Assembly: GCA_965200965.1 (NCBI GenBank)
Contig: OZ241744.1
Location: 3,296,001 to 3,360,000, forward strand
DNA: 64,000 nt
DNA from: an uncultured Candidatus Binatia bacterium
GTDB lineage: Bacteria; Desulfobacterota; Binatia; Bin18
Direction of reading: 5' to 3'
The position numbers and the translations under genes are program-made. How positions within the stretch are numbered: position 1 is the first letter of the stretch; each line of letters starts with the position of its first letter. Positions 19,432 to 63,603 of the stretch are shown piece by piece. Below the pieces are notes generated by a model. That model saw nothing but the letters and a program-made list of their open reading frames with translations, was not told the origin of the DNA and ran no database searches.

Positions 19432-20442
19432 CTACCACCCATAGCGCTCTTGCTAGTAGGCCGCCCACTCCGAGACCGCCCCGCCACAGTCCCGCCTCAC
19501 GGCCTCAGCAAGCACGGACGGACAGACCCCTGAGAAGGCGTCGTCGGGTCGCCTCAAGGTGGCGCGGACCATGGCCTCAAGCGTTTTCAGCCCGGGAAAT
19601 CGCCTGGTCAGAGGCGGAGAGGTGACTTTCTCCCGATACGCCCAGTTGCCCTCAGGCACGACGCTGACGAGTTTCGCCTCTGAAACGCCGAACTCTTTTT
19701 GCTCAACCATCCGGTCGGCCAGCAGCCGCAGGCGCATGATCTGGTAGAAGGGTTCGTAGAGCAGTTCTTCCATCGGAGCCACGCCGTTGAAGGAGGAAGA
19801 GCCGGCGGAGTAGCGAGCGGCATAGCGCTGTCGCCGCGTCCTGCCCTGATTTCCCTGGCCTTTATCTTCTCTCTGGTATTTCTCCGTGTACTTCCACTCC
19901 AGGAGATAGGCGCGCCGTCTGCCGCCATTGGTCGTGGCGACCGCAAAGGCATCAATGCTGGTCACATTCGCTCCCCGGGTCAGGGCCGCGTCCTCCTCAA
20001 GCGGACGATCGAGGCCGACCCATTCAAACTCGATAGGCGACACGGTGCCCTGGTGGGAGATTGGAGCGATATCGCTGACATCGCTGTCAATGCTCCGAAT
20101 ACCCGCCGCCAGTGCGCCGGGTATGTCAGCCAAAGGAAGCAGAAAGTTCACACATGCAATCTGGGAACTCGCCATGTTGCGGGTCGGCCTCTCCCCCTTG
20201 GAACGGTCGCCGTTCCGGCCGGATTGCCACCAGGGGATGTTGCGGTCTTTGAAAAATCTGACCGCCCCGTCCTCGCCCCGGAGTGGCGGGTAGAGGTTTT
20301 CTTCCTCACACCCCACACTCAGGAGGTAGCCGTATTTCTGCCCGTGAGCATCCGAGGGCGAGCGTCCCTGCTGGCTGACTGTTGCAGAGGTCTGCCGAAA
20401 ATGCGCCTGGCGCTTTTTGGCGATATCTTCGAAGTTTGGCAT
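19432..20442 (-). CDS. PGN_0703-like putative PD-(D/E)xK restriction endonuclease, with a premature TAG at 19453-19455
   Basis: NMASSQIACVNF, TSIDAF, LLEWKYTE and EPFYQIMR motifs; the C-terminus reads WAAY*QERYGW*. Confidence 0.7.
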
Positions 20443-20561
20443 CTCGATTCCTCCAATGACCCCGCCTGTGTTTTCACGTTTCCTCCCGCGCAACCACCTT
20501 GACCCCGCGCCTTGACGCAGATAAGGCCAGACGAGATGGGTGCGCAAAGGGGACAGGTGTT

Positions 20562-21152
20562 GTGAAGGTCAATGTGGCTGCCGGCTACCACGCCCGGCTG
20601 CGCCGGCAGGCGTTCTACACGCCCATCCTGGTTGGCTTGGCCGGTCGGCGCAAGACCGGCTTGGCCATGCGGGTGCCTGAGCTGTTCTCCTTTCGCCGCG
20701 AAGGGCTGCCGATCACTGTGCGCCTCATCGGCTATCAGGGCCGGGAAGGGGTATGGCTGGTGGCTGTGGCGTTTCGGATTGCGGCTGACGCCCGGTTTCT
20801 GCTTGAAGGCATTGCCTATCTGAATCCCCATCAGGCCGACGACTATCATCTGCTCCACAATCTGGCCCAGCAGGAAGGGTTTCCGCTGATCTTCCTGAAC
20901 GACAGTCTGAAGGTCGGGGTCGGCCAGGAAGTCGTCTGGTCGGTCTATAATCGGCAACAGGTCAGGGTCTTGCTGCACCAGCTCGATCATGTCCTGCCCG
21001 AGCTGCGCGAAGACGGATCGGTCGATCCCGCCTTCAGCGCCATTCGCCGCGAGTTCCATACCTGCCACTCCGTCCAGACCCTCCTGGCCACCCAGCCCCA
21101 TGTGACCGGGGTGAGTTTTGGCCCGTCGTTTCGGGGCGTTGTCTTGGAATAG
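20562..21152 (+). CDS. Hypothetical protein
   Basis: Open frame with host-like codon use, 11 bp upstream of the next gene; no recognised motif. Confidence 0.6.
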   Translation: MKVNVAAGYHARLRRQAFYTPILVGLAGRRKTGLAMRVPELFSFRREGLPITVRLIGYQGREGVWLVAVAFRIAADARFLLEGIAYLNPHQADDYHLLHNLAQQEGFPLIFLNDSLKVGVGQEVVWSVYNRQQVRVLLHQLDHVLPELREDGSVDPAFSAIRREFHTCHSVQTLLATQPHVTGVSFGPSFRGVVLE

Positions 21153-21163
21153 GCCAGTGGTTC

Positions 21164-24100
21164 ATGCGGAAAGACACCGATCGCTATTGCTACAGCCCGT
21201 CTGACCTGCTGGAGTTTCTGCATTCGCCGTTTGCGAGCTGGATGACGCGCAGGGGGCTTGACGACCCCCAGGCCGCTCAGCCGGACGCCGAGTCGCCCCA
21301 GCAGTTGATCCTGGCAGAGCACGGCCGCCGCCACGAGCAGGCTTTCCTCAAGCAGCTCCACGACCAGGGCCGCCAAGTGTACAGGGTTCCGCCCGGCGGC
21401 GACCGTGCGCAGCACACCCTGCGCGCCATGCAGGCTGGACACGAGGTGATTTTTCGAGGCGTGCTGGCCCAGGCTGATTATGTCGGGGAAGCCGATTTCC
21501 TGGTCCGGGTTGAAACGCCGTCGCGGCTGGGCGGCTATGCCTACGAGGTGTGGGAGACTAGGCTGGCGCGGGCGGTGCGGCCCGAGTTTCTCATCCAGTT
21601 GTGCGGCTATGCCGAACTGCTTGAGGCGGTCCAGGGCCGCTGTCCTGAGCGGCTCTCCTGCGTGCTGGGCAACGGCCAGGTGTGCGCCTTTCGGACGGCC
21701 GATTATGTGTATTACTACCGGGCGCTGAAAAGCGCCTTTGTCGCCTTCCTGGACGACTTTGCGCCCGGCCGTCCGCCGCCGCCCAACCCGTGGGGCGAGA
21801 ACGGCCGCTGGCAGTCGCACGCCGAGGCGTTGCTTGAAGCCAGCGATCACCTGTGCCGGGTGGCCAACATCAACCAGGCCCAGGTCGAAAAGATCCAGGC
21901 CGCGGGGATATACACCATGCGCGGCCTGGCCGGCACCGACCGGCAGCGTGTGGCGCAAAGGCGAACGATGACTCAGAAGAGCTCATCGTTCGCCTTCCTG
22001 GACGACGCGGTTTTTGCTCGCCTGCGGGAGCAGGCCCGCCTCCAGTTGGCATCTGTCGGTGCCGATACACCGGCCTGCCAGCTTGTGACGCCTGCGGCGG
22101 ACGACCCGCGCCGCGGGTTGGCCCTGCTGCCGCCCGAATCGGCTCTTGATATCTATTGTGACCTGGAGGGCTATCCGCTGATTGAGGGCGGGCTGGAGTA
22201 CCTGTTTGGGGCGAGTGCTCTCGAGCCCGCCACGCCCAGGTTTTTTGACTGGTGGGCCCACAACGCCGAGCAGGAAAAGCGCGCCTTTGAAGCCTTTGTT
22301 GACTGGGCGTTTGCCCGCTGGCAGGCCGACCTAGGCGCGCATATCTACCACTACGGGCACTACGAAGTAACGGCCCTGCGGCGTCTGATGGGCCGCTACG
22401 CGACGCGCGAGGCCGAGGTGGACGCCCTGCTGCGCAACGGTGTTTTTATCGATCTGTACACGATTGTCCGCCAGGGGCTGCGGGTTGGCGAGCCGCGCTA
22501 CTCGCTCAAGAACCTGGAGCGGCTGTTTCGTCCGAAGCGGACCGGAGCAGTCGGCACTGCGCTTGACTCGGTAGTGGCCTATGAACGCTGGCTGGCCAGC
22601 GATGAGCCGCCGGACTGGCGGGCCTCAGCCATGCTGCAAGAGATCAGGGCCTATAATCGGGAAGACTGTGAGTCGGCCCGGCAACTCGCCGGCTGGCTGC
22701 GGGAGCGGCAGCGCGAAGCCGGCATGGTCTGGCTGCCGGCCAGCCCGGGCCGGTCTGAGGAGGGCACACCCGAAGTGCCGGCCCAGCCCAACCCGCGCCA
22801 CGAGTTGGCCGCGCAATTGTTGACCGCCATTCCTGAGCGACGGGAAGAGCGGGCGGGGGACGAGCCGCGCTGGCAGGCCCAGGAGATGCTGGGCCAGGTG
22901 CTGGAGTTTCATCGCCGCGAGGAAAAGCCGATGTGGTGGGCAACCTTTGAACGCCAGGCCATGACCGAGCAGGAACTGATTGAAGACGGTGACTGCCTCG
23001 GCGGGCTGCGCCGCGAGTCTGAGCTGCCCGTTTCCATCAAAAAATCGCTGGGTTTCTGGTACACCTTTGACCCGGACCAGGACACCAAACTGACCGAAGG
23101 CGCGGCCTGCTTTTTTGCTCACGATCTCGATATCACCACCGAAATCCACGCCCTCAACCGGGACGCGGGGCGGGTGTGTCTCAGGTTTGGCCTCCGCAAA
23201 CTCCGGCAGTTCGGCGACGCTCGCCCCCCGGCCCGGCTGTCCCTGATTCCGAATGAGCGCGTCCCAGCCCAGGTGATTGCCGAGGCCATCGAACATACCG
23301 CCCGAAGCTGGCAGGAAGGCCGCCCCCTCTCTCCTGCCCTGGCCGACTTCCTGGCCCGTCGGCCACCCCGTCTGCGCCCGGCCTCCGACCCCGCCGGCGT
23401 GCCCCAGCCCCTCGTCGCTCCCGGCGAAGACCTGTGCGCCGCGGCCGTGCGTCTGGTGTCCGGGCTTGACCATTCCTGTTTGTGCATCCAGGGCCCGCCC
23501 GGGGCCGGTAAAACAACCGTTGCCTCCGCGGCCATTGTATCGCTCCTGGAGCAGGGCAAGCGTGTTGGGATCAGTTCAAACAGTCACGCCGCGATTCTGA
23601 ATCTGCTGGAGAAATGCGGCGAGCTCCACAACGGTCGGCTCGACTGCATCAAGGTCGGCGGTCCGTCGGACGCCCCGTTTTTTGCCCGCTGCCGCGGGGC
23701 GCGCTACGCCCAATCGGTCCGCTACGCCCTGCCCGAGTTGGACAAGGTCGGGCTGATCGGCGGTACGGCCTGGGCCTTCAGCGCCGCGGACATGCGGGAG
23801 CGGCTGGACTACCTGTTTGTTGACGAGGCCGGCCAAGTCTCGGTGGCCAACCTGATCGGCATGGCCCCCTCCAGCAAAAACCTCGTTCTGCTCGGCGACC
23901 AGATGCAGCTCAGTCAGCCGATCCAGGGCTCGCATCCCGGCCACAGCGGTCAGTCGGCTCTCGAATACCTGCTCCAGGGCCGGGCGACCATCCCCGACAG
24001 GCTGGGGCTGTTCCTGGATACCAGTTGGCGGCTCCATCCCGAACTGTGCGGCTTTATTTCCGACACTATGTATGACGGCCGGCTGCGGGCCGCGGCCCAC

Positions 24101-24655
24101 ACCGGCAAGCGGCTTGTCCGCCGGCCGCCAGGCGCAGGCGGGCATATCCGGCGGGAGGCCGGCCTCGTCTTTGTGCCGGTCGTCCATAGCGGCAATACCC
24201 AGGCCAGCGACGAAGAAGTCGCCGTGATCCGGGAGATTGTGCATGAACTGCTAGGCCGGGCGCTGACCGATGAAACAGGCCAGCCCGCCGGAGCGGTCGG
24301 CTGGGACGATATCCTGATTGTTGCCCCGTATAATATGCAGGTGCGTAAGCTCCAGTCGGCCCTGGGGCCGTCGGCCAGGGTGGGTTCGGTCGATAAGTTT
24401 CAGGGCCAGGAAGCCGCGGTGGTGATGGTGTCCATGTGCGCCAGCCACGGCGAGACTTCGCCCCGGGGCATCGAGTTTCTGTTCAGCCGCAACCGTTTGA
24501 ATGTCGCCCTGTCCCGGGCCCGCAGCCTAGCCGTTGTGGTGGCCCATCCAGGCCTGTCGCGGACACCCTGCGCCACCCTGGCCCAGATGGCGGCGGTGAA
24601 TGTCTTCTGTCGGGTGGTGGAGGAGGGCGGAGCAGCGGGAACTGCCGGGGTATGA
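21164..24655 (+). CDS. TM0106-family RecB-like nuclease fused to RNase H-like and SF1 (DNA2/NAM7-like) helicase domains
   Basis: YSPSDL, GEADFLVR, QLCGY, DLEG, HIYHYGHYE, YSLKNLE, YNREDC, QGPPGAGKT, VDEAGQ, GDQMQL, SVDKFQGQE and NRLNVALSRA. Confidence 0.9.
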   Translation: MRKDTDRYCYSPSDLLEFLHSPFASWMTRRGLDDPQAAQPDAESPQQLILAEHGRRHEQAFLKQLHDQGRQVYRVPPGGDRAQHTLRAMQAGHEVIFRGVLAQADYVGEADFLVRVETPSRLGGYAYEVWETRLARAVRPEFLIQLCGYAELLEAVQGRCPERLSCVLGNGQVCAFRTADYVYYYRALKSAFVAFLDDFAPGRPPPPNPWGENGRWQSHAEALLEASDHLCRVANINQAQVEKIQAAGIYTMRGLAGTDRQRVAQRRTMTQKSSSFAFLDDAVFARLREQARLQLASVGADTPACQLVTPAADDPRRGLALLPPESALDIYCDLEGYPLIEGGLEYLFGASALEPATPRFFDWWAHNAEQEKRAFEAFVDWAFARWQADLGAHIYHYGHYEVTALRRLMGRYATREAEVDALLRNGVFIDLYTIVRQGLRVGEPRYSLKNLERLFRPKRTGAVGTALDSVVAYERWLASDEPPDWRASAMLQEIRAYNREDCESARQLAGWLRERQREAGMVWLPASPGRSEEGTPEVPAQPNPRHELAAQLLTAIPERREERAGDEPRWQAQEMLGQVLEFHRREEKPMWWATFERQAMTEQELIEDGDCLGGLRRESELPVSIKKSLGFWYTFDPDQDTKLTEGAACFFAHDLDITTEIHALNRDAGRVCLRFGLRKLRQFGDARPPARLSLIPNERVPAQVIAEAIEHTARSWQEGRPLSPALADFLARRPPRLRPASDPAGVPQPLVAPGEDLCAAAVRLVSGLDHSCLCIQGPPGAGKTTVASAAIVSLLEQGKRVGISSNSHAAILNLLEKCGELHNGRLDCIKVGGPSDAPFFARCRGARYAQSVRYALPELDKVGLIGGTAWAFSAADMRERLDYLFVDEAGQVSVANLIGMAPSSKNLVLLGDQMQLSQPIQGSHPGHSGQSALEYLLQGRATIPDRLGLFLDTSWRLHPELCGFISDTMYDGRLRAAAHTGKRLVRRPPGAGGHIRREAGLVFVPVVHSGNTQASDEEVAVIREIVHELLGRALTDETGQPAGAVGWDDILIVAPYNMQVRKLQSALGPSARVGSVDKFQGQEAAVVMVSMCASHGETSPRGIEFLFSRNRLNVALSRARSLAVVVAHPGLSRTPCATLAQMAAVNVFCRVVEEGGAAGTAGV
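21958..21996. repeat. 39-bp palindromic element located in frame within the TM0106 gene
   Basis: AAGGCGAACGATGA-ctcagaagagc-TCATCGTTCGCCTT, with 14-bp perfect arms. Confidence 0.8.
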
Positions 24656-25117: not shown

Positions 25118-26242
25118 TTATTTGGCGTGCAGGGCTGAGCCGACCGCCACATCAACCGGAGCCTGAACGGTCTTGGGCGTCCAGCTGTGGAGTTCTTGGC
25201 CGACGGTCCGGGCGAACAGCCTCATGCAGCGTTCGACCTCGTCGTAGGGCAGGCTCTGGTAGCTGAAGCAGCCGTTGATCTCAAAGTCGCCGATGACCTC
25301 ACGGCGTTTGCGGACTTTCTCAACCAGCATGTCGGGCGTGCCCCACAGGTTGGCGTTCAGGAAGTCTTCCACCACCGCGTCCATGCCGGCGGCCTTCATT
25401 TGCTGGGCGGCGTGGGCGTAGTGGGCGTAGGATTTGCCGGTTTCGGCAAAATGATCGCCGGTCATTTCGTAGTGCTCCATCACACTCCAGTAGTAGCCGA
25501 CGATATTGACCCGGGCGATCTCTTCGGCCCGCTTGACATCCTCGGTGCAGGCCACAAAGTCGGCGCAGTTGATCGGCGGGGCTTCTTCGCCGTTGTTGTG
25601 TTTGCGGAAGTTTTCCCGGTACTGATGGATGTTGTCGGCCACCTTTTCCCAGCTCATCTGGGAGAACATCATTGCCCCGAGGCCCAGCCGGGCGGCCACG
25701 TCAAACGACTCGGGCGACATGCACACCATGTAGCGACGGCCCTTGAAGCTGCCGACCGGCCGCGGCCGGACCTCAATCCGCGCCTGTTTGTAGTGCTGGG
25801 TGTCGGCTTCGACAAAGCCGTTTTCCAGGCCGTTGACGATGATCTCGGCCGCTTCGTTAAAGCGGTCCCGGGCCTCGGACATATCCACGCCAAAACCGCG
25901 GTACTCGCGCCGCGACAGCCCCCGGCCAAGCCCGAGGACGGCCCGCCCGTCGGACAGGTGGTCAAGGAGGACCATTTTTTCGACGACGCGCATCGGGTTG
26001 TTCCAGGGCAGGATGATCGCGCCGGTGGCCAGTTGCAGGCGCTCGGTCCGGGCGGCGATATAGCTCAGGTACTGCATGTTGTCGGGGCAGATTGAGTAAT
26101 CAAAGAAATGGTGCTCAACCGGCCAGATTATATCAAAGCCCATGCCCTCCGATTCGATGGCGAGGCGGGTTTCATTCTTGTACATTTCCCGGTCGTCGTG
26201 GGCCTTATGGTTCTGCAGGACCATCTGTATGCCGATTCTCAT
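25118..26242 (-). CDS. LLM-class flavin-dependent oxidoreductase
   Basis: GFDIIWPVEHHF, ILPWNNPMRVVE and LDHLSDGRAVLGLGRG. Confidence 0.92.
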   Translation of the reverse strand: MRIGIQMVLQNHKAHDDREMYKNETRLAIESEGMGFDIIWPVEHHFFDYSICPDNMQYLSYIAARTERLQLATGAIILPWNNPMRVVEKMVLLDHLSDGRAVLGLGRGLSRREYRGFGVDMSEARDRFNEAAEIIVNGLENGFVEADTQHYKQARIEVRPRPVGSFKGRRYMVCMSPESFDVAARLGLGAMMFSQMSWEKVADNIHQYRENFRKHNNGEEAPPINCADFVACTEDVKRAEEIARVNIVGYYWSVMEHYEMTGDHFAETGKSYAHYAHAAQQMKAAGMDAVVEDFLNANLWGTPDMLVEKVRKRREVIGDFEINGCFSYQSLPYDEVERCMRLFARTVGQELHSWTPKTVQAPVDVAVGSALHAK

Positions 26243-26389
26243 GGTCACTCCTTCCTTTCCCCCCTGGTGTTCCAAAGGGTCTGTTCACATATCGGGCCAG
26301 CCTAGCCCAATCGGACCGATCGGACAAGGGACGCCGGCCGGGACACGCGGGCGTTGACTTCATTGCCGGTGTCGCGTTTCATAAGACCC

Positions 26390-26911
26390 ATGCCGGGGTG
26401 TCTGAAAACTGCTGTCCTGCTCCTGGCACTGCTGTGTCCCGTCGGCCTCGGAGCGGTTGAGACCGCCCCGCGCATCTCAGACCGGGAGATCGTTGAGCGG
26501 CTGACCAGGCTGGAAGCGGGGCAAGGCCACTTGGCGAGCAAAATTGAGGCGAACACCGCGGCCACTGACCAGTTGCGGACGGGTATGCAGATGCAGATTC
26601 AGCAGTTGCGGACGGATATGCAGACGCAGATTCAGCAGTTGCGGACGGATATGAATGCTCAGTTTGATCGGCTTTCGCAACTCATGCTGGGGATTGTTGG
26701 CGCGTTTGCCGCGCTTGTGGCGGCGACGCTTGGGTTTGCGCTGTGGGACCGGCGGACGCTCGTGCGGCCCCTTGAGGGCAAGGTGCAAGCGGTCGAAGAG
26801 GAGTTGGCCCACAACCGCGCACATCTGCACTCCCTGCTGGAAGCCTTCCGCTCGCTGGGGCGTCAGGATGAGAAGGTAGCCGCGGTGCTGCGGCAATTCC
26901 GGCTGTTGTAG
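26390..26911 (+). CDS. Exported coiled-coil protein with a membrane anchor
   Basis: Signal peptide, QLRTDMQTQIQ 11-aa repeats, a TM helix, then WDRRT. Confidence 0.7.
   Translation: MPGCLKTAVLLLALLCPVGLGAVETAPRISDREIVERLTRLEAGQGHLASKIEANTAATDQLRTGMQMQIQQLRTDMQTQIQQLRTDMNAQFDRLSQLMLGIVGAFAALVAATLGFALWDRRTLVRPLEGKVQAVEEELAHNRAHLHSLLEAFRSLGRQDEKVAAVLRQFRLL
26570..26653 (+). repeat. 33-bp coding tandem repeat (about 2.5 copies)
   Basis: Unit CAGTTGCGGACGG(G/A)TATGCAGA(T/C)GCAGATTCAG at 26570, 26603 and 26636 (partial). Confidence 0.9.
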
Positions 26912-26933
26912 GCCGGTTGTTCAACTCATCGGC

Positions 26934-27878
26934 TCAGCTTGTGTCACTTGTACCTTGGACTGAAAAAGGCTCACCATCGCGGTCATAGGCAAAGTCCGGT
27001 CCGGCGTAGTCATTCCAGCGGCGGTTATAGGGACCGGCTTCGAAGCGTGAAACGTCGTCGGTCGTGCCTGGGTCTCCCTCGTCAAGCCCGTGGCCGAATT
27101 CCACGCCACCAAGGTTGGTCAGGATGTAGCGATTGTGCATCTTGTCGCCATCCTCACGGTTTTTCCAACGATGTACGGTGAGTGTCGCTCCTGCGGGAAG
27201 AATAGGAGGGAGCTTAGCCCTGCATTCTTTCTGAAACTTCTCCCAAATCGGCGCACCATCGCGATCGGCCGTATGGAGTTCGATTGTGAGATCTGAGGCT
27301 CGGGTCCCGATGATCCTGACAAATGCGGCCAGAGGTTTCCTGAATCTCTCTTCGGTAGCGCGGAAGTGCGGGTCTACAAACAGTACTTTTGTTGCGCAAC
27401 GCAGCATCGGCGCAACGCATTCTGCCATTGCTTCCGCGGTCCGTTTGACGGTTCTTGTACCCGGGGTGTTCCAGAGTTCAGGCGTTCCATCTACGATGGC
27501 GTCTTCAAGTATGATGTTTGTGTTTCTGCGTGGGTTGTCGCGGGCCAGGATTGCGTGAAAGGGTTTGCGGGTGTGTTCATTCTCCGCGTTGGTGAGCCAG
27601 CCGAGGGAGTCGTCCCAGATATATCCCGGACGCTTAACCACGGGCATAGTCAACTGTTTTACCAATTCTTCTATCCGTCCCCGTGCCGTTTCTTTTTTGC
27701 TGGGGGGGCCGCTGAAGGTGTCATCAAAAGCTTCCCAAACCAGTCTTTTCCATTTCTTGGGGTAACGTGAGACAACTTTTCCCTTGTCAGAACCAAACTG
27801 GCTAATAAAAAATCTTCCCTTTAGGCGATCATGCCAGGACGCGACAAGTTCAGGCTCTAGCGCATATTCGTGAATCAT
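26934..27878 (-). CDS. Hypothetical protein with a C-terminal PLD-like/MIT_C-like domain (putative effector)
   Basis: VLFVDPHF...IELHT...MHNRYILTNLGGVEFGHGLD; starts 2 bp after the ATPase stop; AT-richer than the flanks. Confidence 0.6.
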   Translation of the reverse strand: MIHEYALEPELVASWHDRLKGRFFISQFGSDKGKVVSRYPKKWKRLVWEAFDDTFSGPPSKKETARGRIEELVKQLTMPVVKRPGYIWDDSLGWLTNAENEHTRKPFHAILARDNPRRNTNIILEDAIVDGTPELWNTPGTRTVKRTAEAMAECVAPMLRCATKVLFVDPHFRATEERFRKPLAAFVRIIGTRASDLTIELHTADRDGAPIWEKFQKECRAKLPPILPAGATLTVHRWKNREDGDKMHNRYILTNLGGVEFGHGLDEGDPGTTDDVSRFEAGPYNRRWNDYAGPDFAYDRDGEPFSVQGTSDTS

Positions 27879-27880
27879 TG

Positions 27881-29482
27881 TCAGAATAATTCCTTCGCTC
27901 GTTCCGGAAAGAAGCCTTGTGGCCAGGGACGGTCGAATTCACCGTCTTCGGTTACGGGAATCTCAATGACCCGTGCCCCCTTCTCGCCAGGCTCGACGTA
28001 CAGGACGGCGACATCCTCCGGGCGGATGCCCGGGAAGCCGTCGGGCAACTCGTCTTCCGTTGTTTCGCGTATCCGTCGCAGGATGCGGAGCAGCAGGTGC
28101 TCGCTATGCGTCTCCAGCAGGAAGGTGTTGCCCCGCTTCAGGAAGAGGTCGCCCCGCTTCTTGGCGGACCGGATGAACAGGTCGCCGAGTTCGGCCTGAT
28201 GGGCGGGGTGAAGGTGGATTTCGGGCTGTTCAATCAAGAGTGTCTTCGCTTCACAGAGCTCAGCCTGTGCCACGATGGGCAGCACTTGGCTGATACCGAA
28301 GCCGACATCCCGCAGGCTGACATCTACGTCGATATTCTTGTCGGTAAGGCGTAGAGAAAAGACGTTGCTGGGGCTTGCGTCTTCTTCGTGTTGCAGTTTG
28401 GAAACTTTCAGGGTGTATTGCACGCCGAGACCTTTCAGGTCGGCGTTGATTTTCTCCACTAGATCGGGGTTCTCAAAGAGAATGGAAGGCAGAAGCTCGC
28501 CTGACTGTCCGACATACTCAGTCGTGTCGCCGCTGTATTCGTAGACACGTTTTGGCGGATTCCGCAGAGGCCCTAGATATATCAAACTTTCCAGGTTTGC
28601 GCGGAACCTTGAAAGAATTCGGTTGCGCGGGAGACTCATCCATGTGCCCATTAGATTGGACAGATCGGAGCTTGAGAAATCTATTCTCTCAGAAGAGTGT
28701 TCGGGTAGAAAATTCTGATAGGTAGGGATGTCTAGCTGGTGTATTTCCTCTGCACCCCTTTGAAGAGCGTCTTCAAGCTCGCTGCAAAGGGCCTCTTTAA
28801 TTTTAGAACGTTCGATAGTCCGCAACCTCTCCTTTATTTGATTGCTTTCGAGGCCAGGAATGATATGCCCGCCATCAGAGTTTTTTGACAGCAGAAAAGC
28901 GAGATCTCTGTATTCGGGATCATTACCAGTATAGCAAGAATGAAGGGCGTTCCACCAGCGCCCCCAGAATTCCAATTTGGATTTGGAAGAGAACCGAACC
29001 GTCTCCATGACATGTTGCGTATCATATCCGAGCCCCCAGCCAGGAGCCGCAATTTCCAGGATCTTTTGCGCATCATCTCCGACATTCAGAGCTAGAGCGA
29101 CAGCCCAGGGATCCGCTAGCGCCAGAGCTTCTTTTGAATAGGTGAATAGGACTCCTAGAGCGGCTTCCCGTATCGTCTCGTCAGGAGACAGGAAGAGAGG
29201 TATCTCCAGATCAAACCGTGCCCAAAACTCAAAATCCCGCTCTGTCTCATGCCGATGCACGAAATCCTTATATGACCCCAAATCAACCAGCGAGCCTTTG
29301 GGAAGCAGGGCGGTGTGGGGGTTTTTCGCCTCCTCAAGCGTCTGCTTCAGGAGCAGGAGCGATTGGAAGATGGAGCTTTTGCCGGACGAGTTGGCCCCAA
29401 AGATGAGGGTAAGCGGACGGATCGGAATCGCGACTGTCTCGCCAAACGCCTTGAAATTGGTAAGCTGGTATTCGCGTAGCAT
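27881..29482 (-). CDS. ABC/AAA_15-type ATPase with a DUF3696-like C-terminus
   Basis: NFKAF, Walker A GANSSGKS, signature-like DVGFGISQVLP, Walker B-like IEQPEIHLHP, ETHSEH and DGEFDRPWPQGFF; RBS AAGGGGAGG. Confidence 0.88.
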   Translation of the reverse strand: MLREYQLTNFKAFGETVAIPIRPLTLIFGANSSGKSSIFQSLLLLKQTLEEAKNPHTALLPKGSLVDLGSYKDFVHRHETERDFEFWARFDLEIPLFLSPDETIREAALGVLFTYSKEALALADPWAVALALNVGDDAQKILEIAAPGWGLGYDTQHVMETVRFSSKSKLEFWGRWWNALHSCYTGNDPEYRDLAFLLSKNSDGGHIIPGLESNQIKERLRTIERSKIKEALCSELEDALQRGAEEIHQLDIPTYQNFLPEHSSERIDFSSSDLSNLMGTWMSLPRNRILSRFRANLESLIYLGPLRNPPKRVYEYSGDTTEYVGQSGELLPSILFENPDLVEKINADLKGLGVQYTLKVSKLQHEEDASPSNVFSLRLTDKNIDVDVSLRDVGFGISQVLPIVAQAELCEAKTLLIEQPEIHLHPAHQAELGDLFIRSAKKRGDLFLKRGNTFLLETHSEHLLLRILRRIRETTEDELPDGFPGIRPEDVAVLYVEPGEKGARVIEIPVTEDGEFDRPWPQGFFPERAKELF

Positions 29483-29514
29483 GTTCGTCCTCCCCTTGCT
29501 GCCCTTGGGAATAA

Positions 29515-29530
29515 TGCAAGGTGCGTGCCA
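29515..29530 (-). promoter_or_regulatory. Sigma54 (-24/-12) promoter of the ATPase operon
   Basis: Minus strand TGGCAC-GCACC-TTGCA matches the TGGCAC-N5-TTGCW consensus exactly and ends 32 nt before the ATG. Confidence 0.85.
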
Positions 29531-29616
29531 CTTGTGCCAAACAGGGCTACTATACACAAATCAGCGCCGTTTCGCTACCAAACCCCCTTCCCTCTCCCCT
29601 GGAGAGAGAAGAAATG

Positions 29617-29644
29617 TTGCAATTCACAAGAAATCTTGTATGAA
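29617..29644 (+). promoter_or_regulatory. Candidate sigma70 promoter of the activator gene, with a palindromic operator/UAS in the spacer
   Basis: TTGCAA-16 nt-TATGAA ends 6 nt before ATG 29651, with no SD sequence; inverted repeat ACAAGA-aa-TCTTGT at 29626-29639. Confidence 0.5.
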
Positions 29645-29650
29645 CAAGGC

Positions 29651-31174
29651 ATGAGCGGATGTGTCCTTGTCGCCTGGCTGGGCAATACCGACCTGCGCGT
29701 CTCCGGCGGTGAGTTGGGGGACGCATTGGGGCCGATTGGACAGGCGGCGCGTACCTTGGACTTGGAGGCGGTCCATCTGCTCAGCGACCATAAGCCCCGA
29801 CAGTCGCAGCGCTATCGGGCGTGGCTGAGTGAACGCCTGGGGATAGAAGCCAGCCTGCACCCGGCCCGGCTGAGCAGCCCCACCCGCTTTGATGAAATAT
29901 ACGAGGCCGCGGTTGCGGTGCTTGACACGCTCGGCGCTGGAAACGGCGCTCCGCGCCTGGTCTACCATCTCAGCCCGGGCACGCCGGCAATGGCCGCGGT
30001 GTGGATTGTGCTGGCCAAGACCAGCCACCCGGCTGAACTGATAGAATCATCCGTAGAAGACGGCGTGCGCACGGTGTCGTTTCCGTTCGAGATTGCCGCG
30101 GAATATCTGCCGGGCAGCACGGGCCCGAGCGATGACCGGATTGTACGCCTCACCCAAGGGCTGCCCCAACACGCCCCCGAGTTCGGGGCGATCATCCATC
30201 GCTGTGAGGCCATGAAAACCGAGATTGCCCGGGCCAGACGGCTGGCCGTCCATAATGTTCCGGTGCTGATTCAGGGCGAGTCAGGAACCGGCAAAGAGCT
30301 GTTTGCCCGCGCCATTCATGCGTCCAGCCCCAGGGCCGGCGGACCGTTCCTTGAGGTCAACTGCGGGGCCATTCCGGGCGAGCTGCTTGAAGCCGAGTTC
30401 TTTGGCAGCACCAGAGGGGCGTTTACCGGGGCCGAGGCCAAGGCCGGCTATCTTGAAGCGGCCCACACCGGCAGCCTGTTTCTGGATGAGATCGGCGAGC
30501 TGCCGCTGACCGCCCAGGTCAAACTCCTGCGCTGCCTCCAGGAAGGCACGGTCCAGCGCCTCGGCTCGACTCAGCCCAGAAACATTGACATTCGGGTGAT
30601 CGCCGCCACCAACCGCGACCTGCACGAAGAAGTCGCCGGCCAGAAATTCCGGGAGGACCTGTTCCACCGACTGGCGGTTGGCGTGCTGCGCCTGCCGTCG
30701 CTGCGCGAGCGGACCGGCGACCTTGGTCTGCTGATCGATCATGTCCTGGAACGCATCAATGCCGAGTGTGGGCGACAGCCCGGCTGGGTGGAGAAGACGC
30801 TTGCCGTTGAGGCGCGCAATCTGCTGCTCCAACACCCCTGGCCGGGCAATGTGCGGGAACTGTCCAACACCCTGTCGCGGGCTGCTATCTGGACGGTCGA
30901 GCCCAGCATTGACGCCCACGACATTCGGGCGGCCCTGTTCCCGGCCAGAAAAGACGCCCGGGCTGCTGACCCGGTGCTGAACCGCAGTCTGGGAGACGGC
31001 TTTGCGCTGCCTGGCCTGCTGGCCGATGTGGCCCGGCACTACCTGAGCCGGGCGCTGGCCGAGACCGGGGGCAACAAGTCGGCAGCGTGCAGGCTCGTCG
31101 GCCTCCCCAACTCCCAGACCTTCACCAACTGGCTGAAAAAATATGGGGTCGGGAGAGCGCCGCGCTTGGGATAA
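29651..31174 (+). CDS. Sigma54-dependent activator with N-terminal CARF-like (RtcR-type) sensor, AAA+ and HTH domains
   Basis: LVAWLGNTDL and LVYHLSPGTPAM (RtcR-like N-domain); GESGTGKE, intact GAFTGA, FLDEIGEL, FREDLFHRL and WPGNVREL; HTH GNKSAACRLVGL. Confidence 0.88.
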   Translation: MSGCVLVAWLGNTDLRVSGGELGDALGPIGQAARTLDLEAVHLLSDHKPRQSQRYRAWLSERLGIEASLHPARLSSPTRFDEIYEAAVAVLDTLGAGNGAPRLVYHLSPGTPAMAAVWIVLAKTSHPAELIESSVEDGVRTVSFPFEIAAEYLPGSTGPSDDRIVRLTQGLPQHAPEFGAIIHRCEAMKTEIARARRLAVHNVPVLIQGESGTGKELFARAIHASSPRAGGPFLEVNCGAIPGELLEAEFFGSTRGAFTGAEAKAGYLEAAHTGSLFLDEIGELPLTAQVKLLRCLQEGTVQRLGSTQPRNIDIRVIAATNRDLHEEVAGQKFREDLFHRLAVGVLRLPSLRERTGDLGLLIDHVLERINAECGRQPGWVEKTLAVEARNLLLQHPWPGNVRELSNTLSRAAIWTVEPSIDAHDIRAALFPARKDARAADPVLNRSLGDGFALPGLLADVARHYLSRALAETGGNKSAACRLVGLPNSQTFTNWLKKYGVGRAPRLG

Positions 31175-31249
31175 TCCTGACCCAATACCTGAAGGGCGGC
31201 ACCTCTCCCTTCATCCTGTCCCCCTTTGCAGGCCGTGGCCGGCGACGCG

Positions 31250-32689
31250 CTACAATACCGGCCGTGCTGTCACATCCCCGGACACGCGCCGCTTGAGCCA
31301 GCGGCCGTCGCTCGAGCTGCCCACCAGTTTGCCATCCTCAACAATCACCTTGCCCCGCAGCAGGGTCATAACCGGCCAGGCCCGGGCGGCAAAGCCCTCC
31401 CAGATGCTGTAGTCGGAATTGGCGTGCAGGTCGTCCAGGCCGATGGTCTTGTGCAGCGTGGGGTCAAGCACGACCAGGTCGGCATCGTTGCCCGGCTGAA
31501 TCGTCCCCTTCTGCGGATACAGCCCGAGCAGCTTGGCCGCGTTGGTTGAGGTAATGTCCGCAAAGCGCTGGAGGGACATCTTCCGCTCGGCCACAAACTT
31601 GGTGTAGGCAACCGGGATGCGGGTCTCAATCCCGTTATGGCCGCCACACACCGTCTCAATGGTGTCGCCCCACAGTTTGGGGCCCTTGTGGGTGGTATAT
31701 TCGTCGGTGGCGGTGGTGGCCAGCCGTCCGTCCATCAGGCCGGCAATCAGCGCGTCCCGGTCATCGGCGAACTTGATGGCCGGGTAGGTATGAATGGCGG
31801 TTCCGCCGGGCTTTTTGTAATCGTCGCAGGTGAACTCCAGGTAGTTGTGCAGCGCCTCGCCGTACACCGGCTGGCCGGCGTTGCGCGCCTCGGCAATCGC
31901 CGCCACGCCTTCCTTGGCCGTGGTATGCACAAAATACACCCCCACGCCGCTATGCCGGGCCAGCCGAATAATATGCCGGAAGGCCAAGTCTTCAGACAGA
32001 TTGTTATGCACCAGGTGCAGGTTGTAGCCCTGGGCGCTGTTCTCGCGCTTGAGCTTCTCGGTCATATAGCGCACGACCTCATCCTCTTCGGCATGCACGG
32101 CCATGATGCCGCCGTGCCTGGCGACCTCGGCAAAGATGGCCGACAGATGGCCGTAGGGGACCCGGATAGGATGAAAGGTGGTGAAAATTTTGAAGCTGGC
32201 CACGCCCTCCTGCACGGCCTCAGCAATCTCGCCGATGGTCTGCGGGGCCACCTCACCGGCCAGAATATAGTGGAAGCTGTAGTCGGTGTAGGCGTGGGTC
32301 CGAAACACCTCACGGCGCTCTTCCAGCACGCTCATCATCGACCTGGCCGGCGCATCGCCCTTGTCCTGGAAGCTCAGGTCTCCGGCAAAATCGACAATCG
32401 TTGTCACCCCGCCAAAGGCCGCCGCCCGGCTGGCGTCCTGCGGTGGCTGGGTCATGATGTCGGGCTGGCCAGACCACTGGCTGGGTACCGGAATGCCGAT
32501 ATGGGCGTGGGGCTCGATACCGCCCGGAATGACGATCTTGCCGTGTGCGTCAATCTCCCGTCCAGCGTCCGCGGCCAAGCTGCCGGCCCAGCCAAGCGCA
32601 GCGATTTTTTCCCCCTGAATGCCGATATCCATCTCCCCAACGGCCTGGGGAGTGACAACCTGTCCGCCTTTGATAATCAGATCGAGCAT
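31250..32689 (-). CDS. Dihydropyrimidinase/hydantoinase-like amidohydrolase
   Basis: LDLIIKGGQVVT, PGGIEPHAH, AAAFGGVTT, SFKIF, VHAE and KGTIQPGNDADLV. Confidence 0.88.
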   Translation of the reverse strand: MLDLIIKGGQVVTPQAVGEMDIGIQGEKIAALGWAGSLAADAGREIDAHGKIVIPGGIEPHAHIGIPVPSQWSGQPDIMTQPPQDASRAAAFGGVTTIVDFAGDLSFQDKGDAPARSMMSVLEERREVFRTHAYTDYSFHYILAGEVAPQTIGEIAEAVQEGVASFKIFTTFHPIRVPYGHLSAIFAEVARHGGIMAVHAEEDEVVRYMTEKLKRENSAQGYNLHLVHNNLSEDLAFRHIIRLARHSGVGVYFVHTTAKEGVAAIAEARNAGQPVYGEALHNYLEFTCDDYKKPGGTAIHTYPAIKFADDRDALIAGLMDGRLATTATDEYTTHKGPKLWGDTIETVCGGHNGIETRIPVAYTKFVAERKMSLQRFADITSTNAAKLLGLYPQKGTIQPGNDADLVVLDPTLHKTIGLDDLHANSDYSIWEGFAARAWPVMTLLRGKVIVEDGKLVGSSSDGRWLKRRVSGDVTARPVL

Positions 32690-42603: not shown

Positions 42604-45600
42604 TTACTGGCCGACTGGCGGGGGCAGCGGGGTCAGGACGAAGTTCTGGGTGGCCTCCTGCCACACCAGCCGGACCTGTTCTCCGGGGCCGGGGAAGTCG
42701 GCTACAAGCGTTTCTCCGGCGGCGTCCCGGACGAACTCTTCGCCGAGGCCGGTAACGGTGAAGGTGGCGGTGTCGAGCGCTTCGCCATTGACGAGCAGCC
42801 GGGCGGTATGCGTGCCGTCGCCGAGGAGGTTCCAGTTGAATAACAGCCCGAAGCCGTTGTCGCTGTCGCCGCACACCGCACGGGTGTCGGCCCGGCCGGT
42901 GCCGTAGGCCGGTTCGAGCATGATGGTCCCGTTCACCTCAACCTCGACCCGCTCGGCCTCACACACCCAGCCCGACACCAGGCCGATGCCGCTCTGGTAG
43001 GACCCGGTCCCCGGTACCTCCAGGATGGCTCTCTCCCCGGCCGGCGGGGTGGGCTGCGTCAGCCGGCCCACGATCGGGGCCAGCATGAAGTTCTGGGTGG
43101 CCTCCTGCCACACCAGCCGGACCTGTTCTCCGGGGCCGGGGAAGTCGGCTACAAGCGTTTCTCCGGCGGCGTCCCGGACGAACTCTTCGCCGAGGCCGGT
43201 AACGGTGAAGGTGGCGGTGTCGAGCGCTTCGCCATTGACGAGCAGCCGGGCGGTATGCGTACCGTCGCCGAGGAGGTTCCAGTTGAACATCAGCCCGAAG
43301 CCGTTGTCGCTGTCGCCGCACACCGCACGGGTGTCGGCCCGGCCGGTGCCGTAGGCCGGTTCGAGCATGATGGTCCCGTTCACCTCAACCTCGACCCGCT
43401 CGGCCTCACACACCCAGCCCGACACCGGGCCGATGCCGCTCTGGTGGGACTCGGGCCTGGGGTTTTCGAGGTAGCCGATGAGCAGGGATGTTTCCAGGGT
43501 GTAGGGCCCCGACTGATGTGGGGTGCCTTCGACGGCCAGCAGATAGTCGCCCGGGGTGACGGAGATGCTGGACCGAAAGCCCGGCCGCTCGCTCCGGCCT
43601 CGGGCGGTGGCCAGGACGCCCCCGGTCTCGGCCTCGGAGAGCGTGCCTTGGGTGTGGAGGTGGCCGGTGGTTCTGAGGAGCAGCCGGGCGGCGACTGGTA
43701 CGCGCAGGCGGAAGTAGTCCACATCCCCAATGGGATGGATCCAGCCGGTGATGCGGGCGATCCCCCCGAAGGCCGGCAGGTCTACCAGGGTCGCTTCCTC
43801 CGGGCTGTCGCCGTGTCGGTCGCCCGGCGGCTGTCCGGACGGGGGGGCAGGGGGAAGGTCGGGCAGGGGGGGACTGGCCGGGCGGAACTGTTCTACCGTC
43901 AGCCGGGCCGTGTTGCCGGTCGTGCCATCTTCCACCACCACGAGGGCGGGGTCGAAGATCAGGGGGGTCAGCGAGCCGGTCAACTGGTTGCCCGTGCCGC
44001 TGTTGGCTGTAAAGAGAGCAGTCGTCGAGCTGGTCGCTGTGCCGCGCGGGTTGGTGACAATGTCGGCTGGAAAGAGATTGGCACTTGTACTGGTGGCCAT
44101 GCCTCCCTGGCCTACGATGTCGTAGCGGTTGGCCGACACGTCACCAAAGACATTGCCCTGGCCTGTAACCATCACCCGGTTATTATTGGCCAGCCCGGAG
44201 TCGCCGGCCAGCAGCCGCAGCCCCGCGCCGGCCGCATGTCCGGTGAACTCGTTGTCGGTCAGGGTGGCGGATACCGTGTTGCCGGAGACCACCGGCAGGC
44301 CCGGCGGGGGAGTAAACGGGGCTCCGCTGTCCAACCATTGTTGACGGAGGACACGGCCGCCAATGAGGGCAATCCCGTCCCGTCCGTTGTTCCTGAGCTG
44401 GTTCTGGCTCAGGGTGGCCGTGACGGTGTTGTTGTCGGCCAGAAAGTCCCCGCCGATCACGATAATCCCCGTGTCATAATTGTTCTGCACCGTGTTGCTC
44501 TCAAGCGTCACAGTCAGGCTGTTGTTCGAGCTCGACCGGTAGGAGCCTCCTGGAAAGTCACAGCGGGAGGAGTGGACATTGGTGCCGTGTTCCCCGCCGT
44601 AGAGCAGAATAGCGGGTATGGGCCGGTTGTCTATTGTGATGGGGTAGGAACCGATGTTGGTATGAGGGGGCCCGGGGGGGGGGGGGATGATGCCGCCGTT
44701 GCTCGACAGGGTATTGCGGGCGATAGTGGCGGTCATCTGGCTGTTGCGTGCCCCGCAACTCCCCGCGGTCAGTTGAATCCCGGGATTGTACCTGTAATCC
44801 TCAATCCGGTTATCAAGGATGTGGAGGTCGGTGATCCGCATGGCGGACCCGAACGGAGACCACGCCCGAATTCTGGCCCCAAGGGGCTCTTCCCCAATAG
44901 GGGCAATCCCATCGTTCCCGATGAGGAGATGATTCCCCCGGATCGTGGTGTTGGTGATGGCGAAGTCTGTGGTACTGAGCGGGTCCGGACCGCCGGCTAT
45001 ACGCGTATTGTTCCGAAGGTTGATGCCGACTATCCCGCCCCTGATGATGTTGCGTTTGGTGGCCAGGACGGAGGGGGGGTCGGTCAGGGATGCGCCGATG
45101 GTGGTACCGTCAATGAAGGAACGGGAGCGGTAGGTGTAGAAGCCGATCCCATAAGAATTCCGGTTGGAGAGGCCGCCGCTATTGAAGAGAAAGGTGTTGC
45201 CGGTGATGGTGGTGTTGCGTATGCCCCCGGGGCCCCGCGCAGTTTGGCTTGAGCCGGCCTGAAACCGAATGCCTGCGCCACCTGGATCATAGGTCCTGTT
45301 GTCAATGATATTATTGGTGATGGTGTTGCCGGTGATGCTGCTGATAGCACCCGGTGTGCTCGTGGCCCCGATGAAGTGAGAGAGGTATACGCCGGCGATA
45401 GCAAAATGTTTGATCGTGAGGTTGGTGATGGTGTTGTTATCCGAGAGGATGCCAAAGATCCAATAGGCTGGCCAATCGTAAGGGGGGGGGTGGTTCGGGT
45501 CCCCCGTGCCTTGTTGTTGTCGGGTGAGTGCGCTCTGTACGATGACGTCGGGCGTTCCGTCGCTGTTCACGTCACCATCGATCGTGAGGTTGCCCTCGCA

Positions 45601-61633: not shown

Positions 61634-62720
61634 CGGTAATACCCTGCTCCGGCTGAACATCAAGCCGGTCGATAGTCTGTTCTTCCGCGACGCGCGGCCA
61701 TTTGAGCTAAGCAGCCATGCGGCCTCTGGTCTGCCCATGCCCCAGACCTTGGCCGGCGCGGTGCGCAGCGTATTGCTGGAGCGGCACGGGGCAGATTTCG
61801 GCCGGCTGGGAGAACGCACCCGGAGCGGAGCTTCCTTTGCCGAGGCTCTCGACAAGTTCGGCCCCACGGTTGCCTCCGTGGCCGCGGTCCAGATACGCGG
61901 CCCGTGGTTCACCCTGAATGGTGAGGTCTTGCTTCCAGCCCCGGCCAGCCTCCAGCAGGAAAAAGAAAGTAGAAAACTCGTGCGGCTTGACCCGCTCCAC
62001 CCCCCGCCTCCTGGCTGGCGGCCTCCAGCCCCGGGGATGTTGCCCCTGTGGCGGTATGGCCAGGAGACTGTCGAGGCCGCCGACGGATTTCTCCGGCTGT
62101 GCGACTTGGCCCGCTTCCTTGAGGGAGGCTGGCCAAAGTCGGACGCTCCGGCCCTGGCAAAGAACGTGCTGGTCCCGGCAAAGAACGTGTACGAGTTTGA
62201 GGACCGCACCGGCATTGGCGTTGATCCGCTGCGTAACGCCGCGCAGGAAGGTCATATCTACGCCGTCCGCATGTTGGTCCTCAAACCCGAAGCTGGCCTG
62301 TCAGCCGAACTGAGCGGCCCTGCCGGTACCCTGGCCCCGCTTGAGGATGAACCGGTCGTGATGAAGTTTGGTGGCGAGGGCCGACACGTCGTCGTCCGAG
62401 CCGAACAGCGGGGCTTTGACTGGCCGCACATTCCGCCTGTGTCGGACAAGGGCCGGCTGGTGCTGCTGACCACACCGGCCTGGTTCAACGGCTGGAAACC
62501 GCCGGCGCTTGATCCGATAGCCGCGGCTGTCGGTCGTCATCAAGCGGTTTCTGGCTGGGACCTGGCCAAAGGCGGCCCCAAGCCCAACCGCTTCATGGTC
62601 CCCGCCGGCTCTGTCTATTTTCTGCCCCCAGACGCCCAGGTCCCGGCCCAACTGGTCACGGACGAAGATGCAAAGCTGGGCTGGGGATGCTTTCTGAAAG
62701 GAAACTGGAGCTATGTCTGA
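61626..62720 (+). CDS. cmr3: Type III-B Cmr3
   Basis: PVDSLFFRDARPF, PQTLAGAVR, RTGIG, FGGEGR, VSGWD, VPAGSVYF and LGWG. Confidence 0.93.
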   Translation: MADGNTLLRLNIKPVDSLFFRDARPFELSSHAASGLPMPQTLAGAVRSVLLERHGADFGRLGERTRSGASFAEALDKFGPTVASVAAVQIRGPWFTLNGEVLLPAPASLQQEKESRKLVRLDPLHPPPPGWRPPAPGMLPLWRYGQETVEAADGFLRLCDLARFLEGGWPKSDAPALAKNVLVPAKNVYEFEDRTGIGVDPLRNAAQEGHIYAVRMLVLKPEAGLSAELSGPAGTLAPLEDEPVVMKFGGEGRHVVVRAEQRGFDWPHIPPVSDKGRLVLLTTPAWFNGWKPPALDPIAAAVGRHQAVSGWDLAKGGPKPNRFMVPAGSVYFLPPDAQVPAQLVTDEDAKLGWGCFLKGNWSYV

Positions 62721-63603
62721 CAAAACCCTGCTGTTCATCCATGCCCTGACCGGTCTCCACCCCGGCAGCGGCACAGCCCTGGGCGTCGTCGATTTGCCGG
62801 TACAGCGTGAGCGTCACACCGGCTGGCCGCTCATACCGGGCTCATCGCTCAAGGGTGTGATGCGGGCCGGATGCGCCAAGGACGACCGGGAAAATAACGA
62901 TGTCCTGGCGGCATTCGGTCCAGAGACCCCCGCGGCGTCCGACCACGCCGGCGCGGTCGCCTTTTCGGATGCGCGCATTCTGGCCTTCCCGGTGCGCTCG
63001 CTGACCGGCGTGTTTGCCTGGGTGACCTGCCGCGATGTGCTGACCCGGCTTGAGCGTGACCTCAAGCTTGTCGGCGCTGACTTCCCCGCTATCCCTCGTG
63101 TTGAAGAAGGCAAAGCCGCCTGTGCCAGGGACAGCCCGCTGATCGCCCACGGCGAAAAACTCATGCTGGAAGAGCTCGAGTTCTCTCACGGCGGCGACGC
63201 CGGAAAGATTGCAGACTGGATCGCATCGCAGGCCGTGGAAGACGAGGGGACAAAAGACAGGCTGCGCTCACATCTGGCCGTCCTGCCTGATAACGATTTC
63301 ACCTACTTTGTCCGCAACGCCACCGAGGTCGTAGCCCGGATCGGGCTTGACGAAAAGAAGACCGTCCGCACGGGCGCACTCTTCTACGAGGAGTATCTGC
63401 CGGCCGAAACCCTCTTCTACTCGCTGGTGATATGCAGCGACAGCCGCCGCCCAGGCTCGCGGCTTTCCAGCGCTGCCGACATCCTCAACTGGCTTTGTGA
63501 CAGTGCGCCCAAGACGCTTCAGATCGGCGGCGGTGAGACAGTTGGCAAGGGCTTCTGCGCGGTCCGCTTCGCCGACCCGGCCAAGGAGAAAGACCATGAG
63601 TGA
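62713..63603 (+). CDS. cmr4: Type III-B Cmr4 (Cas7-like RAMP endoribonuclease)
   Basis: LHPGSG..VVDLPVQRERHTGWP.IPGSSLKG, FPVRS, LFYEEYLP and QIGGGETVGKG. Confidence 0.96.
   Translation: MSDKTLLFIHALTGLHPGSGTALGVVDLPVQRERHTGWPLIPGSSLKGVMRAGCAKDDRENNDVLAAFGPETPAASDHAGAVAFSDARILAFPVRSLTGVFAWVTCRDVLTRLERDLKLVGADFPAIPRVEEGKAACARDSPLIAHGEKLMLEELEFSHGGDAGKIADWIASQAVEDEGTKDRLRSHLAVLPDNDFTYFVRNATEVVARIGLDEKKTVRTGALFYEEYLPAETLFYSLVICSDSRRPGSRLSSAADILNWLCDSAPKTLQIGGGETVGKGFCAVRFADPAKEKDHE

Follow-up and report, generated by a model that had tools for sequence, protein, structure and literature searches.

The window analyzed here is a 64,000-bp stretch of contig OZ241744.1 (positions 3,296,001 to 3,360,000) from an uncultured Candidatus Binatia bacterium, assembly GCA_965200965.1. 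It carries a 4.2-kb cassette of three genes: a sigma-54 activator gene (29651-31174, + strand, 507 aa) and, divergent from it, an NsnB-like ABC ATPase gene with a C-terminal DUF3696 (27881-29482, - strand, 533 aa) followed by an NsnC-like effector gene (26934-27878, - strand, 314 aa). Based on sequence, we propose that this cassette is an inducible, two-key anti-phage module, a reading to which we assign a probability of roughly 60%. The regulatory circuit is real, conserved, and probably working. Each of its layers was known or predicted before, namely the activator family and its role (2014, 2024) and the ATPase-effector core (Menshen, HEC-03). This locus adds a divergent layout pared down to the minimum and free of restriction genes, together with the pattern by which an operator inside the activator gene was gained and lost. 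An earlier sequence-only reading, made without database searches, had not recognized the three genes as a named system, and indeed no system library names them as one. It nevertheless overstated their novelty: the activator is a member of RtcR_PspF2, a family already catalogued, and the cargo has its counterpart in Menshen NsnB plus NsnC (inPIN + PB-PLD1).

An RtcR-like activator with a predicted CARF sensor

The activator matches the PADLOC model RtcR_PspF2 over its full length (602 bits, E 2e-181), with lower scores to PspF1 (206 bits) and RtcR (175 bits), and it reaches 314 bits on the NCBIfam RtcR equivalog, below the cut-off of 650. An enhancer-binding protein with an RtcR-like N-domain, GAFTGA loop, and helix-turn-helix (HTH) had been read at this position, and all three parts were recovered: a CARF region (~1-150), an AAA+ domain (181-437) with intact Walker A (209), GAFTGA (256), and Walker B (276) motifs and a lid, and an intact Fis-type HTH (~457-499). 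Residues 1-175 were modeled at a predicted local distance difference test score (pLDDT) of 87.7, and all 36 rows listed by Foldseek for this model are CARF proteins (Csm6, Card1, Can2), with a best E of 9e-6 and a TM-score over the query (TMq) of ~0.6. The Pfam family RtcR is matched by 46 of 66 family N-domains at E ≤ 0.05; a profile of the N-domain compared by sequence with solved structures returned nothing below E 0.6. By the Foldseek matches and the profiles, the predicted CARF fold holds in the model.

For family comparisons we used the best 80 of 344 activator relatives found in genome contigs, to which the window adds an 81st. The activator was detected in 9 of 61 related genomes, and the host genome contains an intact rpoN and four enhancer-binding proteins by tblastn. 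A role of RtcR-like CARF activators as defense switches was put forward in 2014, when family members unlinked to rtc genes were noted to lie often beside restriction-modification genes and to likely activate downstream genes via sigma-54 (PMC4012209). In 2024 the same prediction was widened to long defense operons, with cyclic-phosphate RNA fragments as the proposed ligand (PMC11090510). The portions of these two papers available to us name no operator sequence and report no test, and our literature search, outside of which lay most subscription papers and the 2020 CARF classification, found no experiment on RtcR-like activators driving defense operons.

A conserved sigma-54 promoter ahead of the cargo genes

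The 168-bp gap between the activator and ATPase genes (29483-29650) contains a -24/-12 promoter on the - strand (29515-29530), with a predicted start near 29504 and a purine-rich ribosome-binding site, assigned from the sequence, at 29488-29495 (- strand). The divergent two-gene operon 168 bp from the activator was thus as first described, and the motif that had been called a perfect sigma-54 promoter, TGGCAC-GCACC-TTGCA, lies at 29530-29515 as its sole match within the window. Taken alone, this motif is expected 0.10 times per window by chance, and 10 of 100 shuffles held a match; a slightly wider pattern has 6 matches in the 3.62-Mb genome, 29530-29515 among them.

Across the family, the -24/-12 motif is conserved well above the level of chance. 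At a score of at least 16, a sigma-54 motif stands just 3' of the activator in 58 of 76 full-length loci, against 0/76 for the opposite strand; 22 of 81 have one upstream in divergent orientation, against 0/81 for the same strand. In all, 72 of the 81 loci, window included, have one or the other. At a score of at least 15.5, 41 of 63 loci have hsdR behind the downstream motif and 6 have an NsnB-like ATPase, and restriction, BREX, and Gabija genes dominate the cargo across the family. All 9 Candidatus Binatia relatives, hereafter the sisters, share the layout of the window, with the motif in front of an ATPase gene that is divergent from the activator. Together with the window they form one clade (10/10, Shimodaira-Hasegawa-like approximate likelihood-ratio test (SH-aLRT) 100; quick tree of 75 activator rows). 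Direct wiring of the activator to the ATPase-effector pair corresponds to 4 changes on this tree, where the label 'RM+B' includes truncated ATPases, possibly of other kinds.

Sigma-54 motifs flank the activator on both sides in eight loci (L020, L021, L022, L043, L061, L068, L073, and L074), in which divergent neighbors include Gabija GajA (L061), DUF2130 (L021), ARPP-1 (L022, L043 region), and a TnsA/TnsB-like transposase (L068). A second target of the window activator was considered: a sigma-54 motif lies 2.4 kb ahead of a type I hsdR (G000:465789), but the gene it precedes reads by eye as an ammonium transporter, and the candidate was rejected.

A predicted operator conserved upstream and erased within the gene

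The sequence-only reading had also pointed to a palindrome about 120-135 bp upstream of the predicted start site. The sequence ACAAGA-AA-TCTTGT is present at 29626-29639, centered ~128 bp away; rather than standing alone it is the stronger of two tandem units, imperfect 16-bp palindromes 19 bp apart (29606-29621 and 29625-29640), which together form the predicted activator site, or enhancer (29606-29640). A palindrome with 6-bp arms is insignificant by itself, with 12 inverted pairs within 351 bp, and becomes significant because it is conserved across the family. A 35-bp operator matrix exceeds a score of 8 in 73 of the 80 upstream regions that remained after one containing Ns was omitted, against 1 of 79 further-upstream controls and 6 of 400 shuffles. 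The operator pair of the window is the top site in the 3.62-Mb genome at 30.4; no other strong pair was found genome-wide, the runner-up scoring 18.4 in AT-rich DNA. The operator overlaps sigma-70-like -35/-10 elements, read by eye at 29617-29644 (+ strand) with 16-bp spacing, 6 nt ahead of the activator ATG, and this overlap suggests autorepression of a leaderless activator transcript. No IHF-like site (at least 7 of 9 consensus positions) was listed for the intergenic region; the genome has three HU/IHF-family genes. An 11-bp-arm hairpin (29587-29611) abuts operator unit 1, and a longer version of it in several sisters partly explains their longer operator-promoter distance.

Relatives of the activator carry a second operator copy inside the open reading frame (ORF), at codons 381-392 and ~340 bp before the downstream promoter. 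In a synonymous-recoding test of 75 ORFs (4 truncated and 2 interrupted omitted), with a matrix trained on upstream sites only, this position ranked first of 1459, with a mean z of 3.51 against a background mean of -0.02 (sd 0.29). The codons depart from usage accordingly at the site: GCA occurs in 64 of 75 rows (18% of Ala usage), AGA at 41 of 45 Arg (11%), and CTT at 55 of 59 Leu (20%). At the equivalent position in the window (30791-30826, + strand), a similar peptide is encoded by common codons and the operator is gone (z 0.8, score -23). The 9 sisters hold a weakened internal operator, with unit scores of 4.2/7.0 versus 9.4/10.8 in 65 others, in a single clade that affords no independent replicate. 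Intragenic sigma-54 enhancers are described as hard to predict computationally (PMC4641369), and our literature search on them found nothing on the codon 381-392 site. The intragenic operator offers a clear example of codons in a bacterial gene being constrained by regulatory DNA. At L170:2004-2390, an ATPase gene is preceded by a sigma-54 motif and by a strong operator pair of intragenic type, both separate from an intact upstream activator; this looks like a leftover activator 3' end serving as a portable enhancer-promoter.

An NsnB-like ATPase and a putative PIN-PLD effector

The ATPase combines AAA_15/AAA_21 with DUF3696 and retains all ABC motifs (Walker A 29-36, signature 394-399, Walker B/D-loop 415-421, H-loop 457-462), with a hypervariable insert at ~93-285. 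On PADLOC models it matches NsnB at 6e-55 and the HEC-03 ATPase and PDC-M55A at 2e-50; the genome's true Menshen ATPase matches NsnB at 1e-104, well above the window copy, and the genome's own HEC-03 copy likewise scores well above it on the HEC-03 model. At L102:743-3961, the ATPase of NsnB type that precedes the effector is 1073 aa long, roughly double the usual size.

The effector, whose gene begins 2 bp from that of the ATPase, has at least 365 relatives and no significant family match; a DddA-like Pfam match (E 0.036) was dismissed as noise. Its structural model is confident (pLDDT 92.5) and predicts two domains. Residues 1-139 adopt a PIN fold (Z 7.0, root-mean-square deviation (rmsd) 3.6, 111 residues aligned to 1o4w), in which E8, E99, and E101 are conserved but Asn stands at 97 and 115, residues tentatively placed at PIN catalytic sites by motif; the PIN domain of Menshen is described as catalytically inactive. 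Residues 139-305 adopt a single-motif PLD/MIT_C fold (Z 10.1, rmsd 3.2, 129 residues aligned to MITD1; Z 10.1 to NucT, with SauUSI also among the best matches), in agreement with the PLD-like character first attributed to this protein. D169, H248, and R250 are invariant in 80 of 80 members. BrxL is weakly matched by 17 of 80 members, and the BrxL C-terminus has been tied to the PB-PLD1 domain (PMC12065111). A complex prediction of two ATPase 285-533 chains with effector 1-140 scored 0.30 (mark 0.32) and was counted for neither side.

The pairing of the two cargo genes was examined in metagenome loci found through the effector (best 80 of 113, several being near-duplicates). The ATPase gene lies directly upstream of the effector in 68 of the 80, and the remaining 12 have <400 bp upstream. 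Among the 36 loci with at least 2.6 kb upstream, hsdS is found within three genes in 27, a CARF activator within four in 3, and other neighbors in 6. No NsnA/DUF262 gene was detected upstream of the pair in these 36 (home-made profile, 16 unlabelled neighbors checked by Pfam), and none of the genome's 6 DUF262 matches falls in the window. Downstream, DUF262 genes do accompany the pair in L011 and three of the 80 metagenome loci (L107, L109, L163).

The frequent company of hsdS raises the alternative that the same switch controls a cargo which guards type I restriction in the manner of PrrC, with HsdRMS acting in trans or lost and the cassette being a remnant of a longer operon. Several type I hsdR/hsdM genes elsewhere in the genome and the PrrC precedent (10.1101/2024.01.29.577857) would accommodate this. 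However, the ATPase of the window falls in a 16-row clade (SH-aLRT 96, quick tree) without any restriction-linked member, 9 of its rows being divergent from the activator, 4 directly behind it, and 3 in other contexts. Taken with the 4 changes to direct wiring and with persisting purifying selection (below), this leaves the guard alternative unlikely. We also considered that ATPase and effector form one congruent restriction-free lineage; this failed, as the effector tree mixes contexts and shows effectors swapped among sisters.

The predicted signal

The cargo was originally proposed to be something other than rtcAB, which agrees with our search for rtcB: none was found in a genome that is 99.3% complete. 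Damaged RNA is our best guess for the signal because Salmonella RtcR binds 5' tRNA halves ending in cyclic phosphate (PMC7790460 and PMC9879122). By this analogy, we would give an RNA end with a 2',3'-cyclic phosphate an even chance of being the CARF ligand. Another nucleic acid or a protein is a less favored candidate, and a cyclic oligoadenylate is a distant third.

A cyclic-oligoadenylate signal could come from a type III-B CRISPR system 28 kb from the cassette or from CBASS. The CRISPR locus (59015-63603, extending past the window end; G000:C1:3355015-3372500) comprises cas10/cmr2 with GGDD (59015-61633), cmr3, cmr4, cas1, and a long array, together with a 773-aa gene with two RAMP stretches, an APE2256-type CARF gene, and a short cas2-like ORF, and the genome has one SMODS match. 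The fold matches of the activator are likewise CARFs that bind cyclic oligoadenylate, though those are the solved CARFs available. Against this, strong Cas10 matches (E < 1e-20) occur in 14 of the 50 activator-bearing genomes tested, which represent 50 of the 80 loci, and in just 2 of the 9 same-layout sisters; several of the genomes are incomplete, but L005 and L009 are chromosome-level records. This excludes cyclic oligoadenylate as the general ligand. All 66 aligned N-domains share an invariant strand-4 motif, with Pro112 at a position where canonical CARFs carry Lys/Arg. RtcR family members mostly lack a basic strand-4 residue and may bind other ligands (both from PMC4012209). The CRISPR locus moreover owns its APE2256 CARF gene, and we consider it improbable that the activator reads the signal of this neighbor.

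Selection, variation, and decay

The cassette appears to be maintained. The ratio of nonsynonymous to synonymous substitution rates (dN/dS) relative to sisters is 0.13-0.15 for the activator, 0.19-0.26 for the ATPase, and 0.16-0.26 for the effector; in the ATPase insert (93-285) dN reaches 0.84-0.97 and dS is saturated. Contigs of one sequencing run, possibly the source of the assembly, match 25500-28192 and 28181-32500 letter for letter. A second strain, from another study, also has the cassette; it shows 102 differences across 28181-32500, of which 32 lie in 29250-31400, and 5 across 26624-28192. Its 7 listed indels all fall in the ATPase gene and keep the frame overall, and all three frames are intact in both strains among the differences listed. 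None of the 6 listed intergenic differences touches a fixed position of the promoter or operator, which is consistent with constraint but not significant. The concentration of strain differences in the ATPase and the swapping of effectors fit the expectation of an arms race.

Such variation bears on whether the circuit answers phage at all or instead general DNA/RNA damage, as in SOS-linked dormancy or a toxin-antitoxin-like role. Genotoxic stress activates Salmonella RtcR through tRNA fragments (PMC7790460 and PMC9879122), and the cassette sits among metabolic genes, outside any defense island. The restriction, BREX, and Gabija cargo of the family, the patchy presence of the activator in related genomes, the hypervariable insert, and the swapped effectors all argue the other way, and we hold a general damage response to be a good deal less probable than an anti-phage one, with about one chance in ten left to it.

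Proposed mechanism and its weak points

We propose that the activator binds the tandem operator overlapping its own promoter, ~110-130 bp from the sigma-54 start. As judged from RtcR, a damage signal would bind the CARF domain and free the AAA+ domain, opening the promoter. Following published Menshen models, an ATPase oligomer would hold the effector via DUF3696 and the PIN-fold domain. By analogy to PARIS and Septu, the hypervariable insert would recognize a trigger of phage origin, upon which the effector would be released or activated. With a single HxR motif, the effector would have to dimerize to build a PLD-type nuclease site, and the infected cell would be arrested. In this scheme the transcriptional switch would stand in for the Menshen NsnA sensor and for the usual type I restriction genes. 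A fuller version of this proposal, in which the cassette is a dedicated restriction-independent system, CARF damage sensing replaces the Menshen sensor as one of two keys, and a functional intragenic enhancer was erased once the target went divergent, is more tentative, and we would sooner bet against all of its parts holding together than for them.

Several observations weigh against the anti-phage module as we describe it. PLD-type nucleases are not expected to generate cyclic-phosphate ends, so the source of the signal would lie outside the cassette. Nor does the fold guarantee nuclease activity, since the closest PLD matches include lipid enzymes and non-catalytic domains. The 9 sisters keep the internal site, in weakened form, without a downstream promoter, so a role as downstream enhancer does not fully account for it; looping or repression may be further functions. 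Given the downstream DUF262 genes and the full Menshen system elsewhere in the genome, a partner resembling NsnA could conceivably act in trans. In the complete genome G014 (L176:6460-9226), a sigma-54 promoter precedes an ATPase-effector pair and the activator was not found. The loci are related, so that locus counts overstate independence, and the upstream operator matrix was trained on the regions that it scored. Finally, three of the 9 sisters have a split gene (the effector in L005 and L008, the ATPase in L010; assembly error is possible), and the HTH of the window activator carries Ser488 in place of the Tyr found in 72 of 75 family members, a substitution that could weaken operator binding.

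These last two points, along with the erased internal operator and an activator end branch of 0.2 (0.02-0.13 in sisters), could mean that the cassette is nonfunctional in the window lineage, its activator unable to bind DNA and its promoter silent. The frames intact in two strains, the dN/dS of 0.13-0.26, and, less tellingly, the intergenic differences that spare promoter and operator speak for function, and we regard such loss as improbable. The cassette is an unusually small version of such a switch: with a single activator, a single promoter, two targets, and one operator unmatched elsewhere in the genome, it makes ligand, operator, and phenotype all testable in a laboratory strain. It could reveal if the ATPase-effector core of Menshen can function in the absence of NsnA, and if PLD domains of the single-motif, MIT_C-like kind act as nucleases.

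Genomic surroundings

The genes flanking the cassette are metabolic, which indicates a small insertion rather than a defense island. The G+C content of the cargo genes is 0.535 (27001-29000), and the rest of the window is mostly at 0.60-0.68. Convergent with the effector gene is a gene for a 185-aa coiled-coil protein with an internal repeat (26354-26911), which has no family match, adjoins the cassette in 5 sisters, and has ~10 tblastn matches in the genome. A possible small defense cluster lies 2 kb from the cassette (19453-24655), with a REase-ARP/PD-(D/E)XK nuclease (19453-20547, - strand), an unannotated 217-aa ORF, and a 1163-aa RecB-like nuclease/SF1 helicase fusion. Further away, a 300-bp direct repeat (42628-43374; 98% identical copies, 447 bp apart) lies within the C-terminal part of a 1133-aa beta-helix protein.

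Comparison with known systems

HEC-03 (10.1101/2024.01.29.577857) and the PADLOC candidate PDC-M55 are likewise two-gene systems of an ABC ATPase and a PIN-domain protein without a DNA sensor; HEC-03 protects against phage with both genes required, and the ATPase of the window is related to both ATPase models. The genome's own HEC-03 partner is 163 aa and PIN only, whereas the effector of the window is 314 aa with an added PLD domain. On the HEC-03 partner profile, neither this effector nor its 80 relatives match at E ≤ 0.01 (4e-39 for the genome's own partner), and none of them matches the PDC-M55 partner model. The same genome carries a complete Menshen system and adjacent HEC-01 and HEC-03 systems at G000:C1:248-252 kb and 2335-2339 kb (L087, L088).

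Menshen (NsnA-NsnB-NsnC; PMC12065111) shares with the window an ABC ATPase with DUF3696 followed by a PIN-fold/PLD-fold effector. Its NsnC consists of a PIN-fold N-domain and a C-terminal effector of 15 types, PB-PLD1 among them. The inPIN + PB-PLD1 form matches the effector of the window at fold level, sharing an acidic residue after strand 2 and the HxR motif, and the same structural matches (1o4w for PIN, MITD1/NucT for PLD) are reported for PB-PLD1. The window differs in having no NsnA (ParB-DUF262 + ParBDB) upstream, HNR in place of HDR, and a predicted inducible sigma-54 promoter, and the PADLOC NsnC model is matched neither by its effector nor by the relatives (0/80). Because the published survey was seeded from NsnA, pairs that lack NsnA fall outside it.

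On the regulatory side, RtcR of E. coli and Salmonella (rtcBA, rsr-yrlBA-rtcBA) likewise has a CARF-AAA+-HTH architecture and is divergent from its sigma-54 target (PMC9879122). The activator of the window differs from it by scoring below the NCBIfam cut-off, in a genome in which rtcB was not found, and by a cargo that is a predicted defense pair. RtcR_PspF2 (PADLOC PDLC01995; PMC4012209; PMC11090510) is the same family, with predicted sigma-54 control of adjoining defense genes. Compared with the usual loci of that family, the target in the window is divergent instead of downstream, the cargo is two genes without restriction genes, and the intragenic operator has been erased.

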